Shown here piece by piece: positions 3,001 to 62,762 of a stretch of 64,000 bases of DNA (positions within the stretch are counted from its first letter, which is position 1; each line of letters starts with the position of its first letter). A program made the translations under genes and the position numbers. The DNA comes from Candidatus Atribacteria bacterium UBA6251 (GTDB lineage Bacteria; Atribacterota; Phoenicimicrobiia; Phoenicimicrobiales; Phoenicimicrobiaceae), in contig DJVR01000064.1 in assembly GCA_002441285.1 (NCBI GenBank), positions 313-64,312 on the forward strand. Direction: 5' to 3'. The notes under the pieces were generated by a model, which worked only from the letters and a program-made list of their open reading frames with translations, did no database searches and was not told the DNA's origin.

Positions 3001-4147
3001 CTCTTTGTCTAAAAAAATAAATAATTTAAATGCCTCTCTAGAAATAAAAGATAACTTGGTTAAAGTAAAAGAAATGGATTTTTTGGTAGATAATTTTAAG
3101 CTAAATACTGCCGGTACTCTAGTTTTAGAAAAATGGAACCTTCAGGATATTAGTTTAGATCTCTGGACAGCTGAAGAAGCATTTGCCTGGCAGGATATCT
3201 TTCAGGCTCAGGTTAAACTCCAGGCCAGGATAGAAGGTTCCCTTAAGGCAGCCCATCTTTCTGGAAATTTAGTTATTGCCCAAGGGAAGATTAACTGGAC
3301 TACCATTAATCAGAATATTTCATTTCAACCGGATCAGCTTTTTACCCCTTTAGCTGGTTTATCGGGTGATGTTGATTTAGAGATAGAAATTGTTGATGAT
3401 CTTCAGGTAAGAACCTCTGATATTGATTTAAAATTAGGCGGTATTACCAAGCTGCAGGGTGATTTAACTTCTCCCCGTTTTAATGGGGAATTGAAAATTA
3501 AACAGGGATATGTCTCCTTTTTAGATAAGAGTTTCAGAATTTCCAGTGGTAGATTATTATTGGTTGATTCTACAGGAGATGATATGATATTAGATATCGA
3601 TGCACGAACTAAAATTGATGATATAGAGGTATTATTAAAAATAAGCGGTATTTTAGGACGACCAGTTATGACTTTGAGTTCTTCTCCTTCGCTAAGTGAA
3701 GGGGAGATTGTCGCTTTATTAATGTTTAATAAAAATTATGCCGGGCTTACTCAGGGAGAATTAGAAATAGTTTTACAGGAAGAATTAATCAATTTAATTG
3801 CTCAGGGGTTAAGTATAAGATTTTTGAACCAATTGGAAAATAGAATAGCAGAATCTTTAGGTTTGGATGAATTTAAAATAGAAACTATTTTCCAGAAAGA
3901 AGAAACAGATTCTAGTTTTAGCCTTTTTCCTGATTTTAGTTTACAATCTTTAGCTTTTAAATTAGGTAAATATTTTACTGATAATTTCTATTTCAGTTAT
4001 TCTATGCCTTTATTGGAAATGGGTTTGGGAGAGCTGGAACTAGAATTTAAATTAGATGAAGATCTAACTTTTAGCACTAAACTTGATTCTTTAGGTTTAC
4101 AAAAGAATGAATTTGAAGTAAAATTTGAGTTAAACTATGAGTTTTAA
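1..4147 (+). CDS. tamB: TamB-like translocation/assembly module protein (C-terminal DUF490-type), 5' end outside window
   Basis: The ORF track starts at 125, but the same frame stays open back to nt 2. There it encodes a hydrophobic N-terminal anchor (FLKIGLITLLIGLIVTGAYL), so the true start is at or left of the window edge. The protein is >1300 aa, repetitive and beta-rich. The C-terminal block LSSSPSLSEGEIVALLMFNK is typical of TamB. It lies directly upstream of bamA. Confidence 0.8.
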   Translation, partial: SKIKLRSAFLKIGLITLLIGLIVTGAYLTIRSNLAREELKRLIAVQLEKIMERGIYIGKIKNYSLHSLTISDFRIYRDKNLQAEDLIFSADEMIANYNLDLFSALKKETGLLLEDITFRQAEMTLIRDQKGVFDFPEKFNLHLDKFPVFYQVKKINFQDSTLNYLDYFTTKEDGLCILADSVQGYFNLSNLPRIEFNISGLRREDQSPLTIGGQFFLNSSNYSLDFTLKEAEISHFQYYVKDASILNLEKGKFDLNLHLVHNEENTPAELMQTGEASFREVEFSPAFFGGLNFHQAEGKLTLNNQKITLQQLKTFYQDSPLVLSGKINYDDQGIDYHLNLSSNNFSLSDLEEGLQENFAFNSELNVAGTSHLRMEIIGSSDTLQFQGSLSSAQLKLGGYDLFKMNTDFSYAQDVFYLKNFEAEVENGKINGKGKIISLNHLPQYNLSFHLEKIDSTNRLIANLPLSLLKQGLCSAEVEINGGLNWEEKINLFLKGEIANSSGTTSLLANGFILEGNHLNLYVECSGIDLKECGKIIPELELFGKANFSGEIKGVPEDLKINGNLKIKEAQIAKIPLNNLETRIDYQAHQVELQDIFLKNDGLIADGKGKIIFIENQGIKTDLNFQVEELGLNYLNQFISKENLPLTGKAKGDLKLQGIDSAITAQGNLEICDFAIADFKFNSADLTFDYQEGKIILDKVLLNSPGGAQCYAQGDLDLSSESPLNLRINFLKQDLTAIISNFINLKELQTITGRATGSLEIKGDLKSPDFTLASVVDFARVGEIPLNSIEIKAEKIGEVISINNLTLHQKKGKFTAQGWIDLREDRHNLGILLNADQVDLKQLNDIFGFTEEIEGLVSLHAEINGPFNSPYISIQGDIKQGKVADFGFEKCSIDALYEQNILQIKSFNLEKEGHLIQGTGRIPYKFSPGNKEETVTSLADLPLDFNLLMQNMELSLLELLFPQEIKQIQGRGNISLQLSGSFNQPILNGVISLQVSEAEFYSLSKKINNLNASLEIKDNLVKVKEMDFLVDNFKLNTAGTLVLEKWNLQDISLDLWTAEEAFAWQDIFQAQVKLQARIEGSLKAAHLSGNLVIAQGKINWTTINQNISFQPDQLFTPLAGLSGDVDLEIEIVDDLQVRTSDIDLKLGGITKLQGDLTSPRFNGELKIKQGYVSFLDKSFRISSGRLLLVDSTGDDMILDIDARTKIDDIEVLLKISGILGRPVMTLSSSPSLSEGEIVALLMFNKNYAGLTQGELEIVLQEELINLIAQGLSIRFLNQLENRIAESLGLDEFKIETIFQKEETDSSFSLFPDFSLQSLAFKLGKYFTDNFYFSYSMPLLEMGLGELELEFKLDEDLTFSTKLDSLGLQKNEFEVKFELNYEF

Positions 4148-6585: not shown

Positions 6586-7014
6586 ATGCAAATAAAATTA
6601 TCTATTCGGGAAATTGTAGATCTCTTACCCCATCGTTATCCTTTCTTGTTGGTAGATAAGATTATAGAACAAGAAAAGGATAAGATAGTGGGATTAAAAA
6701 ATGTAAGTAGTAATGAACCTTTTTTTTCAGGACATTTTCCGGGGTATCCAGTTATGCCGGGGGTACTGATTATTGAAGCTATGGCTCAGGTGGCTGGAGT
6801 ATTAATGTTTTCCCGGGAGGAAAATAAGGGAAGGATTCCTCTTTTAGTGGGCATCGATAATGCTCGCTTTAAGAAACAGGTCTTTCCGGGAGATCAATTA
6901 ATTCTGAAAGTTGAAATTATTAAGCAAGTAAAAGGTGTTGGTAAGGCTCGAGCAGAAGCTTTTGTAGATCAAACTTTGGTCGCCTCTGCCAATCTTATGT
7001 TTACTACTATGTAA
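6586..7014 (+). CDS. fabZ: 3-hydroxyacyl-ACP dehydratase FabZ
   Basis: Canonical hot-dog motifs: LPHRYPFLLVD and GHFPGYPVMPGVLIIEAMAQ. Confidence 0.95.
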   Translation: MQIKLSIREIVDLLPHRYPFLLVDKIIEQEKDKIVGLKNVSSNEPFFSGHFPGYPVMPGVLIIEAMAQVAGVLMFSREENKGRIPLLVGIDNARFKKQVFPGDQLILKVEIIKQVKGVGKARAEAFVDQTLVASANLMFTTM

Positions 7015-7043
7015 AAAAAAGTGCCAGGCACCTTTTTTTACAT
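7009..7043. repeat. Family A palindrome copy 1 (ATGTAAAAAAAAGTGCCAGGCACcTTTTTTTACAT), terminator-like
   Basis: 35-nt palindrome centred on 7026 with one mismatch. It contains the fabZ stop codon (7012-7014). Nearly identical copies sit at 17815, 18450 and 21963. Confidence 0.9.
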
Positions 7044-11153: not shown

Positions 11154-11360
11154 ATGGCTATTTCTATTGCGGAGATTCCCAAATTATATTATAATTTAAT
11201 TAGTTACTTGGTTAGATAGTTATCTAGTTAATCTGGTTAATTAGTTGGTAAATAAGTTCCCAGTTAATTAAATAATTACTAAACCAACCAAAACAGTCTC
11301 TATCTATTTTTTCTTAACCATTTAACCAACCAGCTAATTAACAGTTTTTAAATTTTTATA

Positions 11361-11409
11361 TTAACTAACTAATTAACTAACTAACCAGTTAACCATTTAA
11401 CTAACTAAC
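11361..11409. repeat. Octamer-periodic tract (CTAACTAA-like units x6)
   Basis: ttaactaa|ctaattaa|ctaactaa|ccagttaa|ccatttaa|ctaactaa, ending just before the RBS aaaggtgg. The complementary-type words (ttagttac ttggttag ...) lie at about 11201-11260. Confidence 0.8.
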
Positions 11410-11428
11410 AAAAAGGTGGTGGCTATAA

Positions 11429-14208: not shown

Positions 14209-14513
14209 TAAAATTCACCTCCTCTCGGATCTTTATTAGTATTATACAGTATCTTCCTAAAAAAATCCTCTTTTTTGTGAAAAATATTTCGATTTCCCCT
14301 ACAAAATTAGAATCAAATATGGTTTTCCCAAGAATACTATCCAGGTTTTTAATAAAGTACTTAATTTTTAAGTGTTTAGACTTTATAGTTATAATATGTT
14401 ATATTATTATAAGTGATTTATTATATTAAATTTTTTACCATAAACAGAATTTTCAACTAAATAACAAAAGAACCAACTAACTAATTAACCAAAAAAGGAG
14501 TCCTCATAAATAA

Positions 14514-17113: not shown

Positions 17114-17815
17114 TTGAAAAATATTCAAAAAACCTATTTTATTAAAATTATTGTTTTGCTTTTTAGCTTATTTTTAATAGTAACTTTATCTTCAGTGGTG
17201 GTTTTGGCACAAAAAGCAGAAAGCGAAGAAGGAAAAGAGGCAACAGAAACTACAGTAAGTATAGAGGCGGATAAGGTTCTTTATGATAAGAGTATGGATA
17301 AGATGAACTTTCAAGGAAATTTAAGAATTTTGCAGGAGGATATTGTTTTAACGGCAGAGGAAGCTGAATTTGATGTGAACCAGAAGATTGGGCAGATTAA
17401 GAACAATATTAAGTTGGTGCAGAAAGATATCACCATTACTGGTGAAGCTCTGGAAGCATTTCTTAATGATAAAAGATATATCTTCCAGGGAGAAGTAAAA
17501 CTAATTCAAGAACGCAAAGATGAAGAAGGAAAAGAAGATAATATTATCTGGAATGCCCCTCAATTGGAGATTTTGGCTGATAGCAAAGATATTACTGCTA
17601 CCGGAGGAGTAAAGATTTTAAAGAAGGACTATACTATTACAGCAGAGCAGGCAGTTTATAATGATCAGGAACAGAAGATAGAACTAAAAGGAAAAGTAAA
17701 GATAGAAGAAGAGGAAAGTAATCGCTGGATCTCCGGTGATCAAGCTATCTTTTTTATCGAATCTGAAAGATTAGAAGTCACCGGCAATGTACATAGCGGC
17801 CTCAAATTAGACTAA
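17114..17815 (+). CDS. LptA/OstA-like periplasmic protein
   Basis: Signal peptide and repeated OstA-like strands (IEADKVLYDKSMDKMNFQGNLRILQEDIVLTAEEAEFD...). TTG start after the RBS aaaggaggg. Confidence 0.65.
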   Translation: MKNIQKTYFIKIIVLLFSLFLIVTLSSVVVLAQKAESEEGKEATETTVSIEADKVLYDKSMDKMNFQGNLRILQEDIVLTAEEAEFDVNQKIGQIKNNIKLVQKDITITGEALEAFLNDKRYIFQGEVKLIQERKDEEGKEDNIIWNAPQLEILADSKDITATGGVKILKKDYTITAEQAVYNDQEQKIELKGKVKIEEEESNRWISGDQAIFFIESERLEVTGNVHSGLKLD

Positions 17816-17849
17816 TGTAAAAAAAAGTGCCAGGCACTTTTTTTTACAT
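17815..17849. repeat. Family A palindrome copy 2 (perfect)
   Basis: ATGTAAAAAAAAGTGCCAGGCACTTTTTTTTACAT, starting at the last base of the preceding stop codon. Confidence 0.9.
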
Positions 17850-18449: not shown

Positions 18450-18484
18450 ATGTAAAAAAAAGTGCCAGGCACTTTTTTTTACAT
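18450..18484. repeat. Family A palindrome copy 3 (perfect), bidirectional terminator position
   Basis: Fills almost exactly the 37-nt gap between the convergent stop codons at 18447 and 18485. Confidence 0.9.
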
Positions 18485-21962: not shown

Positions 21963-21997
21963 ATGTAAAAAAAAGTGCCAGGCACTTTTTTTTACAT
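21963..21997. repeat. Family A palindrome copy 4 (perfect), in a divergent intergenic region
   Basis: Same 35-mer, lying between the starts of lptF/G (21891, minus) and the TPR gene (22063, plus). Confidence 0.9.
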
Positions 21998-36217: not shown

Positions 36218-36232
36218 AATGATTGGTAGGAT

Positions 36233-36276
36233 GGTTACCCAGTTGCCCGGTTATCCGGTTTGCCAGTCTGCCATTT
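36233..36276. repeat. Octamer-periodic tract (GTTNCCNG units)
   Basis: ggttaccca|gttgcccg|gttatccg|gtttgcca|gtctgcca. Bases 36250-36272 recur with one mismatch at 61537-61559. Confidence 0.75.
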
Positions 36277-36427
36277 GGAATCAGTTAAGCTATTTATCAG
36301 TGAGTTAGCTGACTATATAATTGTAAATCTCCTCCTCTCTATTATTGCAAACCAGAGTTGACAAATAATCAATTATAATGTAAACTATAGTTAGCAATAT
36401 CACAGTAAAATAGTAAAAGGAAACAGA

Positions 36428-37900: not shown

Positions 37901-37959
37901 ATAGAATTATAGTTTCAAGCCTCTTTGCTCTTTGTGAGTAAAAATTAAATCAATATATC

Positions 37960-37995
37960 TCCTCCCCCTTGAGGGGGGAGGATTAAGGTGGGGGT
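37960..37995. repeat. GC-rich hairpin repeat (TCCTCCCCC-ttgag-GGGGGAGGA-TTAAGGTGGGGG), copy 1
   Basis: 9-bp perfect stem. A reverse-complement copy (roughly 85% identity by eye) is at 62655-62697. Confidence 0.8.
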
Positions 37996-38102: not shown

Positions 38103-39329
38103 ATGCCGGAAATACAGGAAGAAGAAATTGATTTACGAGAATACATTAATGTCTTACTAAAAAGAAAAGGAATTATTATCTTAATTTTTCTAATTGCGGT
38201 GATTACTGCCGCAGTGGTGAGCTATTTTGTTTTAAAACCTGTCTATGAGGCAAATGTAGTTATAACAGTTTCAACACCCAAGATTAAAAATTCACTTATA
38301 GACGAGATTTCTATAGAAGATTACAAAAACTTAATTAAAGATATTGAAATCGAAGAAGAACTAATACAAAAATTAAATTTAGACAAGGCTCCCTTCGAAC
38401 TAACCCCTTACGATTTAGATCAAATGCTTACCATAGAACTGCCAAAAGGTACTAATCTTATAAAAATAAGTTTACAGGCCTCTAATCCCAAGTTAACTAA
38501 AGATATAATTAATAACTGGGCAACTTTATTTGTAGAGAAAAACAAAAAATTATATTTCGATAAAGTAAAAAAAACTAAAATTAGCGTTGAAGATAGATTA
38601 AAATATGCTGAAAAGGATTATTTTGAAATTGAAGAGAAATTAATGAAATTTAATGAAACTGATAATGTGGAAACAATAGAAAATGAAATTAAATATAAAA
38701 CAACAAAAATATCAAATTTTAAATCAAGATTGATTGATATTCAATTATCTTTAGAAAAAGAAAAGGTAAAAAAAGAACAAATTGTTAAAGCAATAAGTGA
38801 GCAGGAAAAAATATTAAAATTAAATAAATCAATAGTTGATGACCTATTTTTCCAACAGTTAATATCTGACATTACAGATACTAATCTTGAAGTTGCTAAT
38901 CTGACCTATATTAGCGAAGTAACAAACCCAATTTATTATAATTTAGCTCAACAGTTAATTTCTACAGATATTTTAGTTAATTGTTTAATAGCAGAAGAGA
39001 ATCAATTGAAAAAATATATTAATGATTTTAATGCAAGTTTAGAAGATTTAAAAAAAGAATTAACTGAAAAAAAATTAATTCTATCCCAATTGAATAGAGA
39101 ATATAGTGTGAAAGAAAAATTGTATAATAATCTTCACAAGCAAGCTGAAGAAATTTGGCTTACCGAAACTGCCGAAAAAGATTTATTGAAGATTGCCAGT
39201 TTAGCTTATGAACCAAAATATCCTATTAAACCAAACAAAAAATTAAATATCTTAATCGCTGGAGTGCTTGGTCTATTCGTAGGTATATTTGCGGCTTTCT
39301 TCCTCGAATTCTGGCAAAAAGGAAAATAG
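38103..39329 (+). CDS. wzz: Wzz-type polysaccharide chain-length determinant (PCP family)
   Basis: N-terminal IDLREYINVLLKRKGIIILIFLIAVITAAVVSYF, a long coiled-coil periplasmic region, and a C-terminal TM helix LNILIAGVLGLFVGIFAAFFLEF. Confidence 0.75.
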   Translation: MPEIQEEEIDLREYINVLLKRKGIIILIFLIAVITAAVVSYFVLKPVYEANVVITVSTPKIKNSLIDEISIEDYKNLIKDIEIEEELIQKLNLDKAPFELTPYDLDQMLTIELPKGTNLIKISLQASNPKLTKDIINNWATLFVEKNKKLYFDKVKKTKISVEDRLKYAEKDYFEIEEKLMKFNETDNVETIENEIKYKTTKISNFKSRLIDIQLSLEKEKVKKEQIVKAISEQEKILKLNKSIVDDLFFQQLISDITDTNLEVANLTYISEVTNPIYYNLAQQLISTDILVNCLIAEENQLKKYINDFNASLEDLKKELTEKKLILSQLNREYSVKEKLYNNLHKQAEEIWLTETAEKDLLKIASLAYEPKYPIKPNKKLNILIAGVLGLFVGIFAAFFLEFWQKGK

Positions 39330-39336
39330 AAAATAT

Positions 39337-39360
39337 GTCATTCCTGCGCAAGCAGGAATC
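39337..39360. repeat. GTCATTCCTGC-GCAA-GCAGGAATC hairpin element (family D)
   Basis: 6-8 bp stem with a GNRA loop. A half copy gtcattcctg is at 39425. A related reverse copy is at 61604-61650. Confidence 0.7.
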
Positions 39361-39530
39361 TATTATTATTTTTTCTTATACCACAGGAAAAGGGTCCTGT
39401 GTTTTTACTGGAGTAGGCTTGCTTGTCATTCCTGAAATATAGGGGTTCAATGCATCGAGCTTGCGATAAACTTTTATGACCGCTGAAATTATTGCAAAAT
39501 GTAAAGTAATATACTTTATAATTGTAAATA

Positions 39531-45437: not shown

Positions 45438-45492
45438 TTGACAGGCCATTCTTTCTATGGTATATTTTATATAAGTTCATATTATGAACATT
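45438..45492 (+). promoter_or_regulatory. Sigma70-type promoter plus AAGTTCA-N5-TGAACATT operator (site 2)
   Basis: TTGACA (45438-45443), 17-nt spacer, TATATT (45461-45466). The palindrome is at 45473-45492. Confidence 0.65.
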
Positions 45493-45494
45493 CT

Positions 45495-45532
45495 GTCATT
45501 GCCAGGGGGGCTTTAGCAACCGAAACAATCTC
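45495..45532. repeat. GTCATTGC...CAATCTC element (family E), intergenic copy
   Basis: gtcattgccaggggggctttagcaaccgaaacaatctc. It shares its termini with the copy inside ugd. Confidence 0.6.
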
Positions 45533-46032
45533 TACTTACAACCTAAAAAGATATAAATTATCTCATTACCTTGCACTTTGAAATGCTTAATATACAAGGG
45601 TTTCAGAACCCTCTTAAAATTATAAAAAATATTCATCACGAAAATCGTCTCCAAAGCAAGTAAAAGAGTGCCATAAATAGCCTTTTGAGCTCTTGAAAGG
45701 GTTGCTATATAAGGCTTTCAAGTGATATTCGCGTATAACGCGTATAATGCATTTTTTTGAAGTCCATAAGGTAAAACCCTTTAAATTTCAAAAAAATGCT
45801 TAATATGAGCGTTCTATTAGATCTAGCCCAAAAGGCTTTTATGATAAGGGTTTCCGACAGCTCAATAATGAAATAATTAACTAATGCTTAGCTTAGTGGG
45901 ATAGATAATCGTTCACTGTTTCAGGAAAATTAAATATTAGAAATAATTGGTCAATTGAATAACCTGGCAACTTTTTTAAAACTGTAAACTTTACATTTGC
46001 AACTTGCATCTAACTTTTCATCCTGAATTTTT

Positions 46033-46104
46033 AACCGGTAAATCGGGTAACTGGTTAACTGGTGAACTGAGTCTGACCGCTAGACTGGAAGACTGGGAGA
46101 CTAA
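46033..46104. repeat. Octamer-periodic tract (ACTGGNNA units x8)
   Basis: aaccggta|aatcgggta|actggtta|actggtga|actgagtctg|accgctag|actggaag|actgggag|acta, immediately upstream of the ugd RBS. Confidence 0.75.
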
Positions 46105-46127
46105 ATTTTATAAACGGAAGGAATAAA

Positions 46128-47489
46128 ATGAATATATGTATTATCGGTACTGGCTATGTTGGCCTGGTCACAGGCACTTGCCTTGCTGACTTTGGTCTTT
46201 CTGTAACCTGTGTTGATCAAGACGAAACAAAAATTTCTCTTCTAAACTCCGGTGGCGTTCCCATTTACGAACCGAATTTAGAAGCGTTAATCCAAAAGAA
46301 CATCTCAGCTGGCCGTCTTACCTTTACCACTGACCTTGAAAAAGCAGTCCAACAATCCAAAGTAATCTTTATTGCTGTTGGAACTCCTCCCAATCACGAT
46401 GGATCCACAAATTTAGAGCAGATTGAAAAGGTAGCCCAGCAAATTGCCGCCTCTCTAAATGAATATAAAGTTATAGTAAACAAAAGCACTGTCCCCATCG
46501 GCACCGCCACCAAAATCAAAGAAATAATAAATAAAAATGTCATTGCGAGGAGCGAAGTAAGCCTGCCCCAGCGAAAGCAGGGGAAGCAATCTCACCCTCA
46601 ATTAAAACCAATTGAATTTGACGTCGTCGCCAACCCTGAATTCCTTCGGGAGGGCTCAGCAGTCTATGACTTTACCCATCCCGATAAAATAGTAATCGGC
46701 ACCGAAAGCCCCAAGGCTCTAAAGATAATGCAGGAAATTTACCGCCCTCTCTACCTTATCGATACACCCTTTGTGATTACCAATCCCGAAACTGCAGAAT
46801 TAATTAAATATGCCTGTAATGCCTTTTTGGCTACCAAGATTACCTTTATTAATGAAATTGCCAACCTCTGTGACAAAGTAGGAGCAGATGTGCATCAGAT
46901 AGCCAAAGCTATGGGTTTGGATGGCCGTATCAGTCCTAAATTTCTCCATCCCGGTCCTGGTTATGGTGGCTCCTGTTTCCCTAAAGATACCGAAGCCCTT
47001 TATCATTTTGCATCAACTTGCGGATATGATTTTAAACTCCTAAAAGGGGTAATCTCTGCCAACAATCGCCAAAGAGAACTGATGGTAGAAAAAATTAAAC
47101 ATCATCTTGGCAATCTTAAAGGAAAAACCATCGGCATCTTAGGCCTGGCCTTCAAACAAAATACTGATGATATTCGAAAATCCCCTGCAATTGATATTAT
47201 CCAACTATTACTTAAAGAAGGCGTGCGTATCAAATGCTTCGACCCTCTGGCAATGGATAATACTAAAAAAATCCTTCCCAACTTAACCTATTGCCAGGAT
47301 GAATACGAAACTGCTCAAGATAGTGATGCCCTGGTAATTGCTACTGAATGGAATCAATTCCGTAATCTGGACCTACTTAAAATAAAAAAACTATTAAAAT
47401 CTCCCACCTTACTTGACCTAAGAAACTTATACGACCCAGAAAAAGTAAAACTCTTAGGCTTTATCTATGAGGGAGTAGGAAGGAAATAA
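46128..47489 (+). CDS. ugd: UDP-glucose 6-dehydrogenase
   Basis: N-terminal ICIIGTGYVGLVTGTCLADFG, NPEFLREG and catalytic GGSCFPKD. Carries a 19-codon in-frame insert at 46539-46595. Confidence 0.9.
   Translation: MNICIIGTGYVGLVTGTCLADFGLSVTCVDQDETKISLLNSGGVPIYEPNLEALIQKNISAGRLTFTTDLEKAVQQSKVIFIAVGTPPNHDGSTNLEQIEKVAQQIAASLNEYKVIVNKSTVPIGTATKIKEIINKNVIARSEVSLPQRKQGKQSHPQLKPIEFDVVANPEFLREGSAVYDFTHPDKIVIGTESPKALKIMQEIYRPLYLIDTPFVITNPETAELIKYACNAFLATKITFINEIANLCDKVGADVHQIAKAMGLDGRISPKFLHPGPGYGGSCFPKDTEALYHFASTCGYDFKLLKGVISANNRQRELMVEKIKHHLGNLKGKTIGILGLAFKQNTDDIRKSPAIDIIQLLLKEGVRIKCFDPLAMDNTKKILPNLTYCQDEYETAQDSDALVIATEWNQFRNLDLLKIKKLLKSPTLLDLRNLYDPEKVKLLGFIYEGVGRK
46539..46595. repeat. Family E hairpin element inserted in-frame in ugd
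   Basis: gtcattgcgaggagcgaagtaagcctgccccagcgaaagcaggggaagcaatctcac. Terminal ATTGC/GCAAT inverted repeat and an internal CCCC-a-GC-GAAA-GC-a-GGGG hairpin. Translated as VIARSEVSLPQRKQGKQSH. Confidence 0.7.
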
Positions 47490-61468: not shown

Positions 61469-61603
61469 GGAAAAGATTATTTAATTTACCAATTGACCGA
61501 TTAAAGATACAAGTTACAAGATAATTCAGTTAGCCTGTTATCCGGTTTACCAGTCTGCCGGTCTACGATTCTGAATAAATTCATATATGTGGGTATAAGT
61601 GTT

Positions 61604-61650
61604 CTGGATTCCCGCTTTCGTAGGAATGAAAAGAAGAGTGCGGGAATGAC
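61604..61650 (-). repeat. Family D element (GTCATTCCCGC ... CATTCCTAC-GAAA-GCGGGAATCC), reverse orientation
   Basis: The reverse complement reads gtcattcccgcactcttcttttcattcctacgaaagcgggaatccag. Confidence 0.65.
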
Positions 61651-61703
61651 AATTAGTTAAGAAGTGATGAAATTAATAACGGGGTATGGGGTGGTGCATA
61701 ATC

Positions 61704-62654: not shown

Positions 62655-62697
62655 AAATCCCCACCTTAGTCCTCCCCCTGCAAGGGGAAGGAAATAA
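62655..62697 (-). repeat. GC-rich hairpin repeat, copy 2 (reverse complement of 37960-37995)
   Basis: The reverse complement reads ttccttcccc-ttgca-gggggagga-ctaaggtgggga. Directly abuts the GTCGTTAGTATTTAGT 16-mer (62638-62653). Confidence 0.8.
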
Positions 62698-62705
62698 GAA
62701 GTAGA

Positions 62706-62762
62706 CAGGCGAGACGCCTGTCCAACAGATGCTGATGATAACAGGTGAGACGTCTGTTTTAT
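62706..62762. terminator. Two tandem hairpins (GACAGGCG-aga-CGCCTGTC; AACAGGTG-aga-CGTCTGTT followed by TTTTA)
   Basis: Located between the ends of the plus-strand fragment (62645) and the minus-strand wHTH remnant (62769). Confidence 0.55.

Follow-up and report, generated by a model that had tools for sequence, protein, structure and literature searches.

How does a piece of GC-rich, palindrome-like DNA come to stand in frame inside an intact enzyme gene? The question is raised by ugd, the gene for UDP-glucose 6-dehydrogenase (Ugd), on contig DJVR01000064.1 of Candidatus Atribacteria bacterium UBA6251, of which a stretch of 64 kb was analysed (the window; positions given without a locus number refer to it). 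The answer we favour, with a probability of about 0.8, is that 54 nt of this gene are a copy of a repetitive extragenic palindromic (REP) sequence of the CGTC/TGTC-tagged class, which includes dRS3/NTS, the Rickettsia palindromic element RPE-6 and Ssn-related motifs, and that this copy is kept in frame and translated at an old Atribacterota landing pad. The phenomenon is real and of a kind already described in other bacteria. Directly observed are the membership of the segment in a dispersed family, an insert-free allele with exact junctions, a frame kept in every allele, the conservation of the repeats at the DNA level, and intergenic copies.

The ugd gene is intact and occupies 46128..47489 on the + strand, coding for 453 residues. 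Its open reading frame (ORF) holds all three Pfam domains (N, central and C) of the UDP-glucose/GDP-mannose dehydrogenases, and the N-terminal one extends over 204 residues in the window protein as compared to the 187 positions of the profile. The best solved relative is the UDP-glucose dehydrogenase 4a7p (E=2e-133), and the alignment with it contains a sole long gap, between ...IKEIINKN and ...EFDVVANPEF. The position of the insert was taken from sequence alignment to 4a7p and 2y0e, which places it in the NAD-binding domain, in a loop that leads from a helix to a strand. From the alignment to 4a7p and the general topology of the Rossmann fold this loop would face away from the cofactor site. 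An AlphaFold2 model of the window Ugd, built on a 58-sequence alignment, was discarded as unreliable for the insert (mean predicted local distance difference test score, pLDDT, 63; predicted template modelling score, pTM, 0.50), much of the known Ugd fold being scored below 50 pLDDT.

The initial annotation described a hairpin element of 57 nt which adds 19 codons (46539-46595, + strand, GTCATTGCGAGGAGCGAAGTAAGCCTGCCCCAGCGAAAGCAGGGGAAGCAATCTCAC). Sequence and location were confirmed and the frame is indeed kept, but the 3' end, which is fixed by an empty allele, gives a length of 54 nt (46539..46592, + strand, GTCATTGCGAGGAGCGAAGTAAGCCTGCCCCAGCGAAAGCAGGGGAAGCAATCT) and thus 18 codons, coding for the mostly hydrophilic peptide VIARSEVSLPQRKQGKQS; the CAC (His) at 46593-46595 is the counterpart of a flanking CAA (Gln) in relatives and lies outside the insert. 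The empty allele, L099, reads AAAAAT/CAACC (...AAAAAT/CAACCTACC...) where the slash marks the junction, and the filled allele L130 reads AAAAT/GTCATTGCGAGGAGCGAAGCGACGCGGCAATCC/CAACC, which is an exact insertion of 33 nt with no target-site duplication at the junction of this one clean pair. In the window the element is preceded by a T (46538), with which a TGTC tag (46538-46541) is complete. The tag is followed by the left terminal inverted repeat ATTGC (46542..46546), which pairs with GCAAT (46586..46590), and the interior contains a hairpin, CCCC-A-GC-GAAA-GC-A-GGGG (46566..46583), all on the + strand; the termini and the hairpin are as originally proposed. The element taken whole is no unusually stable hairpin and folds only like shuffled sequences, both as RNA (z=-1.38; 20 of 200 shuffles did equally well) and as DNA (z=-0.68), and the canonical 33-nt form described below likewise folds no better than shuffles. 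The window copy is that canonical 33-mer in which the 4 nt CGAC are swapped for 25 nt (46558-46582) that complete the GAAA-loop hairpin, and we refer to it as a long A-type variant. It is conspicuous by composition because the window is AT-rich (32.7% G+C). Its translation would yield the tryptic peptides SEVSLPQR and QSHPQLKPIEFDVVANPEFLR.

The exact window Ugd protein is found on 8 contigs, among them one from a Logan run assembly and one from a JGI metagenome, and because these are separate assemblies the allele is not an assembly artefact. The nearest genome records are Atribacterota: the Ugd of 'Atribacteria bacterium SCGC AAA255-G05' is 81% identical, and next come several metagenome-assembled genomes of the phylum, Candidatus Oleincola among them. 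Among the best 120 homologues (about 80-90% identity) the protein spans 431-506 residues, a range matched by the spacing between KSTVPxGT and NPEFLREG, which alone varies by 75 residues. When loop length is defined as the number of residues between these two anchors in the fetched DNA, it is 36-43 in about 55 non-Atribacterota loci, 58 in the window and 36-127 in Atribacterota, which bears out the statement of the initial annotation that other Ugd proteins have a shorter linker at this point. In one metagenome series, Ga0210003, contigs carry loops of 40, 48, 51, 76, 79 and 90 residues, so that loop length differs between co-occurring strains. Some alleles (L099, L104, L106 and L006) have little or no repeat array in the loop. 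The initial annotation would have been abandoned had unrelated lineages carried a homologous segment of the same length or had the element been without other copies in the genome; Ugd of unrelated lineages lacks the segment, an insert-free allele exists, and other copies were found. The 431-residue alleles (SSSPSPFD) were considered as ancestral empty sites and rejected, as they retain a D-type left arm; they look like deletions between TCCCTT direct repeats. One further Ugd (L145 149-988) lacks a big internal part in frame, about residues 68-240 with the loop among them, and may represent a defective allele or a collapsed assembly.

Four families of short GC-rich repeats, here called A, B, D and E, make up the loop of the relatives as a mosaic, with units of 26-54 nt and up to five or six modules in tandem. 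The A family reads GTCATTGCGAG...GAAGCAATC, with the canonical form GTCATTGCGAGG...GAAGCAATC. The B family reads GTCATTCCCGCGAAAGCGGGAATCCA or, divided into its parts, TGTC-ATTCCCGC-GAAA-GCGGGAAT-CCA, and gives the peptide VIPAKAGIH; the D family is CCCTCTCCCTTGAGGGGAGAGGG...GGGTGAGGGTGAA and the E family GGACAGGCGTCTCGCCTGTC. At the protein level the same peptides recur in varied order: VIARSEAT(K/R)QS, the peptide VIARSEVSLPQRKQGKQS of the window, VIAREQSDRSNP with NLNRRTGVSPVY, SLRATEGSAAI, SHCEGAKRPKQS, SVIPAKAGIHP and SPLRGEGGVRVK. The peptides 'VIA', 'SLR' and 'HCE' come from the three reading frames of the A family, whose copies are present in frames 0, 1 and 2 of the Ugd loops 29, 4 and 8 times, respectively; in L086, L083 and others the D family is translated as PSPLRGEGGVRVK and the E family as RRTGVSPVY. 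The 54-mer of the window is found unchanged in the Ugd loop of L088, a related long A-type copy is intergenic in L139 (500-552), and the peptide module recurs in P0006, P0012 and P0072. Composite blocks (B-D, B-A and a B double copy) are shared between the loops of relatives and the 3' flank of their ugd genes, as are B variants with an altered hairpin tip, for example VIPAKPVLDPDRGAGIH. The Ugd loop stands out as a phylum-wide hot spot for repeats, with arrays of several families in tandem, a feature absent from the initial annotation.

All 52 distinct loop DNAs, taken from every Atribacterota locus that spans the loop, are in frame and free of stops. Since removal at the RNA or protein level would not be expected to keep such a constraint, the segment appears to be translated rather than removed. 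The copies in the loops that carry a GTCAT tag are all forward (66, with 0 reverse), a bias which stops alone do not explain because two of the three reverse frames are open. D-type copies in the loops are mostly forward as well, with a few pattern matches in reverse, for example in L107. The per-site pairwise difference between alleles is 0.04-0.06 for A and B copies versus 0.13-0.26 for the flanking ugd sequence, and the variation between repeat copies has no third-position pattern. So low a divergence points to recent copying, homogenisation or constraint on the DNA rather than to selection on the peptide.

The class to which these repeats belong is known from other bacteria. CGTC-tagged REPs, whose tag is often TGTC, have stems of 8-9 bp that start with AT, loops of 4-5 nt and tails that are mostly CCA (PMC3733652). 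The family CGTC-1 is the same as dRS3 of Neisseria and RPE-6 of R. conorii (Di Nocera, De Gregorio and Rocco 2013, PMC3733652), and the intragenic copies tabulated in that paper code for VIPAKAGI, SFPRKRES and DSRFRGND in R. conorii proteins, one of them a phosphomannomutase; clusters of REPs within genes that code for 43-82 residues were also reported. The B-type repeat answers to the description of CGTC-1, having a TGTC tag, an 8-bp stem starting with AT, a 4-nt loop and a CCA tail. A BLAST search with the B consensus against records of a plasmid collection located it at at least 40 places in Neisseria gonorrhoeae, the repeat being known in Neisseria as dRS3/NTS (PMC11893778), and at many places in Azospirillum, Legionella, sphingomonads and Photobacterium. 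The B modules of the Atribacterota loop are thus the same repeat as CGTC-1/RPE-6, with the same in-frame behaviour. The likeness to Rickettsia palindromic elements proposed for this locus is closer than was claimed: the companion repeat in the loop of relatives encodes VIPAKAGI(H), as the CGTC-1 REPs of R. conorii do.

The A family is related to this class less strictly. The tag of the window copy is TGTC, which is among the allowed variants (TGTC or CCTC) of the CGTC tag, and CGTC itself is present in a canonical A-type copy that is identical in 32 of 32 positions on plasmid pOB3b1 of the alphaproteobacterium Methylosinus trichosporium (L161 3998-4085), where the repeat, with a CCAG tail, is arranged as an inverted dimer between convergent genes. 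The stem of the window element departs from the class in that 5 bp (ATTGC/GCAAT) enclose an interior of 39 nt (46547-46585) with its own sub-hairpin; the B copy of the window at 39336-39362 has the expected structure (8 bp, GCAA loop, z=-4.77). The 3' tails are ...GCAAT-CT(C) in the window, CCC or CTC in relatives, CCAG in Methylosinus and CCA in the B-type copies of relatives. As the tag and the AT-first closing stem are shared, and perhaps the tail as well, we file the A family as a variant within the CGTC class, although it does not belong strictly to one of the four CGTC families that have been described. Plasmids of Calothrix and other cyanobacteria contain copies with about 90% identity, and the exact 32-mer is present in 51 IMG/VR contigs (L179-L229) with a G+C content of 39-71%; for so short an element the 32-nt core is very widely spread.

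Copies outside ugd support the view of a dispersed family. The 64-kb window contains two A-type and two B-type copies, and about 20 more A or B copies are present in about 0.5 Mb of related Atribacterota DNA, nearly all of them intergenic; 21 of 22 intergenic A and B copies are co-oriented with the neighbouring genes. The second A-type copy of the window lies in the ugd leader (45495..45532, + strand) and has a divergent centre. Only the termini are shared with the copy in the gene, but it is a true family member, as had been supposed: L092 and L165 hold more canonical copies between the same flanks, and the pattern GTCATTGC-N12-42-CAATCTC matches the window twice (45495-45532 and 46539-46593) and none of 100 shuffles that preserve dinucleotides. 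A promoter-like site, TTGACA-17-TATATT (45438..45466, + strand), matches the consensus in 11 of 12 positions and has a TG; it precedes the ugd start by about 660 nt and the leader copy begins about 30 nt downstream of it, which would put this copy within the ugd transcript. Of the B-type copies, the one at 39336..39362 (+ strand, TGTC-ATTCCTGC-GCAA-GCAGGAAT-CTA) has CGTC-1 architecture, begins 7 nt past the stop of ORF 38103..39329 and is terminator-like on both strands. The other is an intergenic 'double' copy, a 5' half-copy followed by a full copy, at 61604..61651 on the - strand; this architecture is also found in Ugd loops of relatives, with the peptide VIPDPSSVIPAKAGIH. A second gene has been hit in L081 (190-260), upstream of ugd: a phosphoglucomutase/phosphomannomutase (PGM/PMM) gene carries a B and an A copy in frame between Pfam domains II and III (...RNPSPPSSMSFPRKRESINLSLRVPVGSEAIPTHNN...). 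The phosphomannomutase RC0657 of R. conorii is listed with an in-frame CGTC-1 copy (PMC3733652). A comparable dispersed element family, as anticipated in the initial annotation, is present as noncoding copies in the window, in related genomes and in other phyla, and is presumably mobile.

A candidate for an agent of spread is found near ugd in relatives. A paper from 2025 ties NTS-like repeats across phyla to a small stand-alone GIY-YIG protein, Ssn, which, in single-stranded DNA (ssDNA), binds the hairpin of one of the strands and cuts just upstream; the layout repeat-gene-repeat is said to resemble a mobile element (PMC11893778). In L089 a stand-alone GIY-YIG ORF of 85 residues (3675-3932, Pfam E=7.5e-18) lies about 2.7 kb upstream of ugd, and in relatives more generally a GIY-YIG gene of 85-87 residues lies 1-3 kb upstream; homologues about 90% identical are present in many sediment and subsurface assemblies. 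In L166 the gene stands between an HTH_24 regulator gene and ugd, an interval which in the window has the leader A copy only. A-type copies were found, on different contigs, at -112 to -2573 and at +401 to +915 of the GIY-YIG gene, and within 5 kb on both sides of it in L165/L167, L171 and L089, a neighbourhood that is repeat-rich anyway. The Atribacterota protein is 36% identical to a GIY-YIG protein of Azospirillum lipoferum, whose gene, between sufB and sufC, is bracketed by four perfect Ssn-related motifs (SRMs), the layout described for Ssn (PMC11893778). The pattern for these motifs, HGTCWYN(0-2)YYVSBRHN(0-5)WNVSBRGN(0-2)RNCYNB (PMC11893778), matches B-type copies 10 times in the Ugd loops of relatives and once in the PGM insert. 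The most likely agent of repeat spread would be this small GIY-YIG nuclease, putatively of the Ssn type.

Two observations concern the surroundings of this gene. In L089 (3560-4280) and L166 (2440-3010) the GIY-YIG ORF, followed by the inverted repeat CCTGCCCTGTTAAATA...TATTTAACAGGG, splits a four-helix-bundle gene that resembles the protein genes of 23S rRNA intervening sequences, an arrangement suggestive of an insertion of the nuclease gene itself. In L173 (324-1358) an IS110-family transposase gene (DEDD_Tnp_IS110 / Transposase_20) adjoins the GIY-YIG gene and a partial A-type copy. The phage recombinase that acts on dRS3 is IS110-like. In Neisseria, dRS3 is the target of this recombinase (PMC11893778).

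The model that we propose for the locus can be formulated as follows. The repeats would multiply by a single-strand DNA route for which an Ssn-type nuclease is required, or which such a nuclease at least keeps in check, and would settle by preference close to existing copies and to the nuclease gene. Within ugd they would survive only in the helix-to-strand loop and only in frame, and in this way repeats of the four families would have piled up head to tail with the tagged strand as the sense strand. Homologous recombination between resident copies would then reshuffle and trim the arrays, so that modules are gained, swapped and lost over time, and selection would spare only those combinations that preserve the frame and are free of stops. 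A more far-reaching proposal, that the Ugd loop is coupled to the Ssn-type GIY-YIG gene next to it and serves as a targeted landing pad, and that the arrays are actively turned over on ssDNA and mark or even control recombination on the border of a variable polysaccharide locus, we regard as rather doubtful.

A number of points weigh against the model. The window allele may be just the heir of an old insertion, and the A-type element is a poor palindrome. The SRM pattern has 0 matches in the window, and the 64 kb contain just two A-type and two B-type copies and no GIY-YIG gene; a homologue of the nuclease is likewise present in 0 of the 51 viral contigs that carry the A-type repeat. The tight bracketing by repeats seen in Azospirillum is absent from the GIY-YIG genes of relatives, which sit within a split four-helix-bundle gene. 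What is known so far of SsnA is the cutting of ssDNA and the limiting of transformation, and no mobilisation of repeats (PMC11893778). Finally, the related DNA was mostly selected for ugd, so that the estimates of repeat density are biased.

The alternative which survives best is a single ancient acquisition followed by recombination or gene conversion among resident copies and alleles and by slippage deletions, the repeat being today a passive substrate. We take it seriously, although we give it somewhat less than an even chance. Distant Atribacterota (L005, L007 and L135, with Ugd identities of 59-65%) already have A- and D-type copies in the loop. The composite units shared between loops and intergenic DNA make the copying of whole blocks possible, and the 431-residue alleles resemble the products of deletion between TCCCTT repeats. 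A recombination test was made with pairwise-distance matrices of 189-nt segments of the gene, in which the matrices of adjacent segments were correlated. Across the loop the correlation reaches its minimum (N2-C1, r=0.25, versus 0.37-0.75 for the other adjacent pairs); it is 0.60-0.75 in the 3' half, but in the 5' half, which is mosaic overall, it is low as well (0.41 for N1-N2, and 0.37), so that the signal for a breakpoint is weak. The matrix test is suggestive of a recombination junction at the loop but does not establish one. It should be noted that the first insertions still need a mechanism, and that the exact presence or absence of 33 nt without flanking homology (L099 versus L130) suits insertion or excision better than recombination. 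Passive recombination would cover the proximate origin of an array only and is compatible with the proposal that repeats of the CGTC class landed in the loop.

It is unlikely that the arrays are kept for a function in cis, either as cleavage or binding sites for an Ssn-type nuclease on ssDNA by which recombination is limited or steered on the border of the variable polysaccharide gene cluster, as by the NTS repeats of Neisseria, or as RNA hairpins that act on the ugd mRNA. Such a function would agree with the concentration of repeats in leader, loop and 3' flank of ugd in many relatives, with the sense orientation of all tagged loop copies and with the stronger conservation at the DNA level of the repeats than of the gene. 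The gene heads a polysaccharide cluster whose downstream genes vary between contigs, and the NTS repeats of Neisseria are also clustered around particular genes and strand-specific (PMC11893778). Against a required function stand the highly variable make-up of the arrays and the nearly bare alleles mentioned above. The copy within the gene also lacks a terminator-like tail, and the sampling was centred on ugd.

That the segment is removed in the manner of an intron or intein, to give a mature enzyme that lacks it, has a single point in its favour, namely that insert-free alleles exist and the segment is dispensable; it is very improbable, since removal would relax the constraint on length and stops which all 52 loop DNAs obey with A-type copies in three frames, since 54 nt is far below the size of any known self-splicing intron or intein, and since the Rfam scan matched 0 families anywhere in the window. 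An ordinary lineage-specific loop extension with a chance likeness to a repeat, or an assembly chimera, is just as hard to credit, for although surface loops of enzymes often differ in length, the identical 54-mer in L088, the related intergenic copy in L139, the 32/32 identity in Methylosinus and the result with the shuffled sequences speak against chance, and the 8 contigs against a chimera.

The window holds other repeats. D-type palindromic repeats are intergenic at 37956..37993 on the + strand (CCCCCTTGAGGGGGGAGG...GGTGGGG) and at 62659..62696 on the - strand, and an intergenic E-type palindrome, GACAGGCGAGACGCCTGTC, is found at 62704..62722. In the ugd leader (45438-46127), which has 0 Rfam matches, blocks are conserved with relatives, for example TATATAAGTTCA...GAACAT and AAGGGTTTCAGA. 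This and other leaders of the window contain degenerate tandem repeats with a period of 8 nt (46040-46110, 11357-11412, 14453-14510, 36232-36280 and 61527-61567), the array in the ugd leader including GGTAACTG GTTAACTG GTGAACTG AGTCTGAC...; Tandem Repeats Finder picks up the 11360 array alone. Units of the same period, GATTGGNN, are present in leaders of L166 (2290-2420 and 3030-3200). A perfect palindrome of 35 nt, ATGTAAAAAAAAGTGCCAGGCAC(C/T)TTTTTTTACAT, occurs in four copies at 7009-7043, 17815-17849, 18450-18484 and 21963-21997; it is a separate AT-rich repeat family and may act as a bidirectional terminator.

At present the finding is moderately interesting, and it would become more so if the link to the nuclease or a role in recombination were borne out. 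It extends the class of CGTC-tagged repeats (dRS3, NTS, RPE-6), abundant in many bacteria, to a candidate phylum of the deep subsurface. At a single codon-level site in an enzyme of essential type, the locus supplies the exact junctions of filled and empty alleles together with dozens of arrays that vary naturally, and if the landing-pad reading is true the series of empty, single-copy and multi-copy alleles would show directly how CGTC-type repeats multiply. There is also a warning for annotation: in predicted proteins, peptides such as VIARSEATKQS, SLRATEGSAAI, VIPAKAGIH and PLRGEGGVRVK are translated repeats and not conserved domains. A literature search gave, within the library searched, no paper linking Atribacteria with such repeats, the combination of 'Atribacteria' and 'palindromic' returned nothing relevant, and searches for the repeat sequences and peptides as strings returned unrelated primer matches only.

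Among the systems to which these repeats can be compared, miniature inverted-repeat transposable elements such as Correia and ERIC are alike in being small non-autonomous repeats with terminal inverted repeats that fuse in frame to host ORFs. The elements described here are much shorter, have no known parent insertion sequence and, at the L099/L130 junction, lack the target duplication of that group. Small dispersed repeats of Nostoc, of about 21-27 nt, insert into the tips of existing hairpin repeats; the replacement of hairpin tips in the long A-type and the B-type variants is similar, although sequences and phylum differ. The REP and BIME (bacterial interspersed mosaic element) sequences with a GTAG tag and a RAYT enzyme (REPINs) share with the present repeats the short palindromes, the unpaired tag, the mosaics, the absence of target duplication and a proposed movement as ssDNA by means of a domesticated enzyme. 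Their tag differs from the TGTC/CGTC found here, and the loci examined showed no sign of a Y1 transposase, for which no dedicated search was made.

The RPE-1 type (PMC10969869) resembles the insert in being placed in frame in unrelated housekeeping genes whose proteins tolerate it. Palindromic repeats in frame in protein genes together with noncoding copies, as in Rickettsia, are indeed found here; the size and the single peptide of the RPE-1 type are not, since those elements have about 100-150 bp and one conserved peptide frame, whereas the units here measure 26-54 nt, with three reading frames in use for the A-type and several families stacked at one site. In NTS/SsnA (PMC11893778) the NTS is CGTCATTCCCGCGMAVGCGGGAATCYRG and the B-type repeat here is TGTCATTCCCGCGAAAGCGGGAATCCAT; in both cases directional repeats are clustered at particular genes, and in relatives of the window a small stand-alone GIY-YIG gene is nearby. 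They differ in that the window element does not fit the SRM pattern and the window is without the nuclease gene, in that the Atribacterota gene lies within a split four-helix-bundle gene and not between repeats, and in that cleavage is known for SsnA and putative for the Atribacterota protein. Copies within coding sequences are not treated in PMC11893778.

The closest parallel is that of the CGTC REPs (PMC3733652), with which the repeats share the CGTC/TGTC 5' tag, the AT-first stem, in the B-type copies the short 3' tail, and the mostly intergenic position just past ORFs, as well as the occurrence of single, dimeric and grouped copies in frame in genes; B-type copies fit CGTC-1 exactly, down to the peptide VIPAKAGI. 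The A-type is unlike them in its 5-bp closing stem and long variable centre, as against a stem of 8-9 bp and a loop of 4-5 nt, and its peptides are absent from the list of intragenic REPs in that paper, which does not name Atribacterota among its species. The arrays also differ, being head to tail in one orientation where CGTC REPs are mostly head-to-head dimers. The in-frame insertion of CGTC-type REPs, grouped copies included, is thus already known from Rickettsia and other bacteria. New are the phylum, the A-type variant with its hairpin-tip derivative, the single codon-level site with up to five or six modules, and the candidate nuclease gene next to it.

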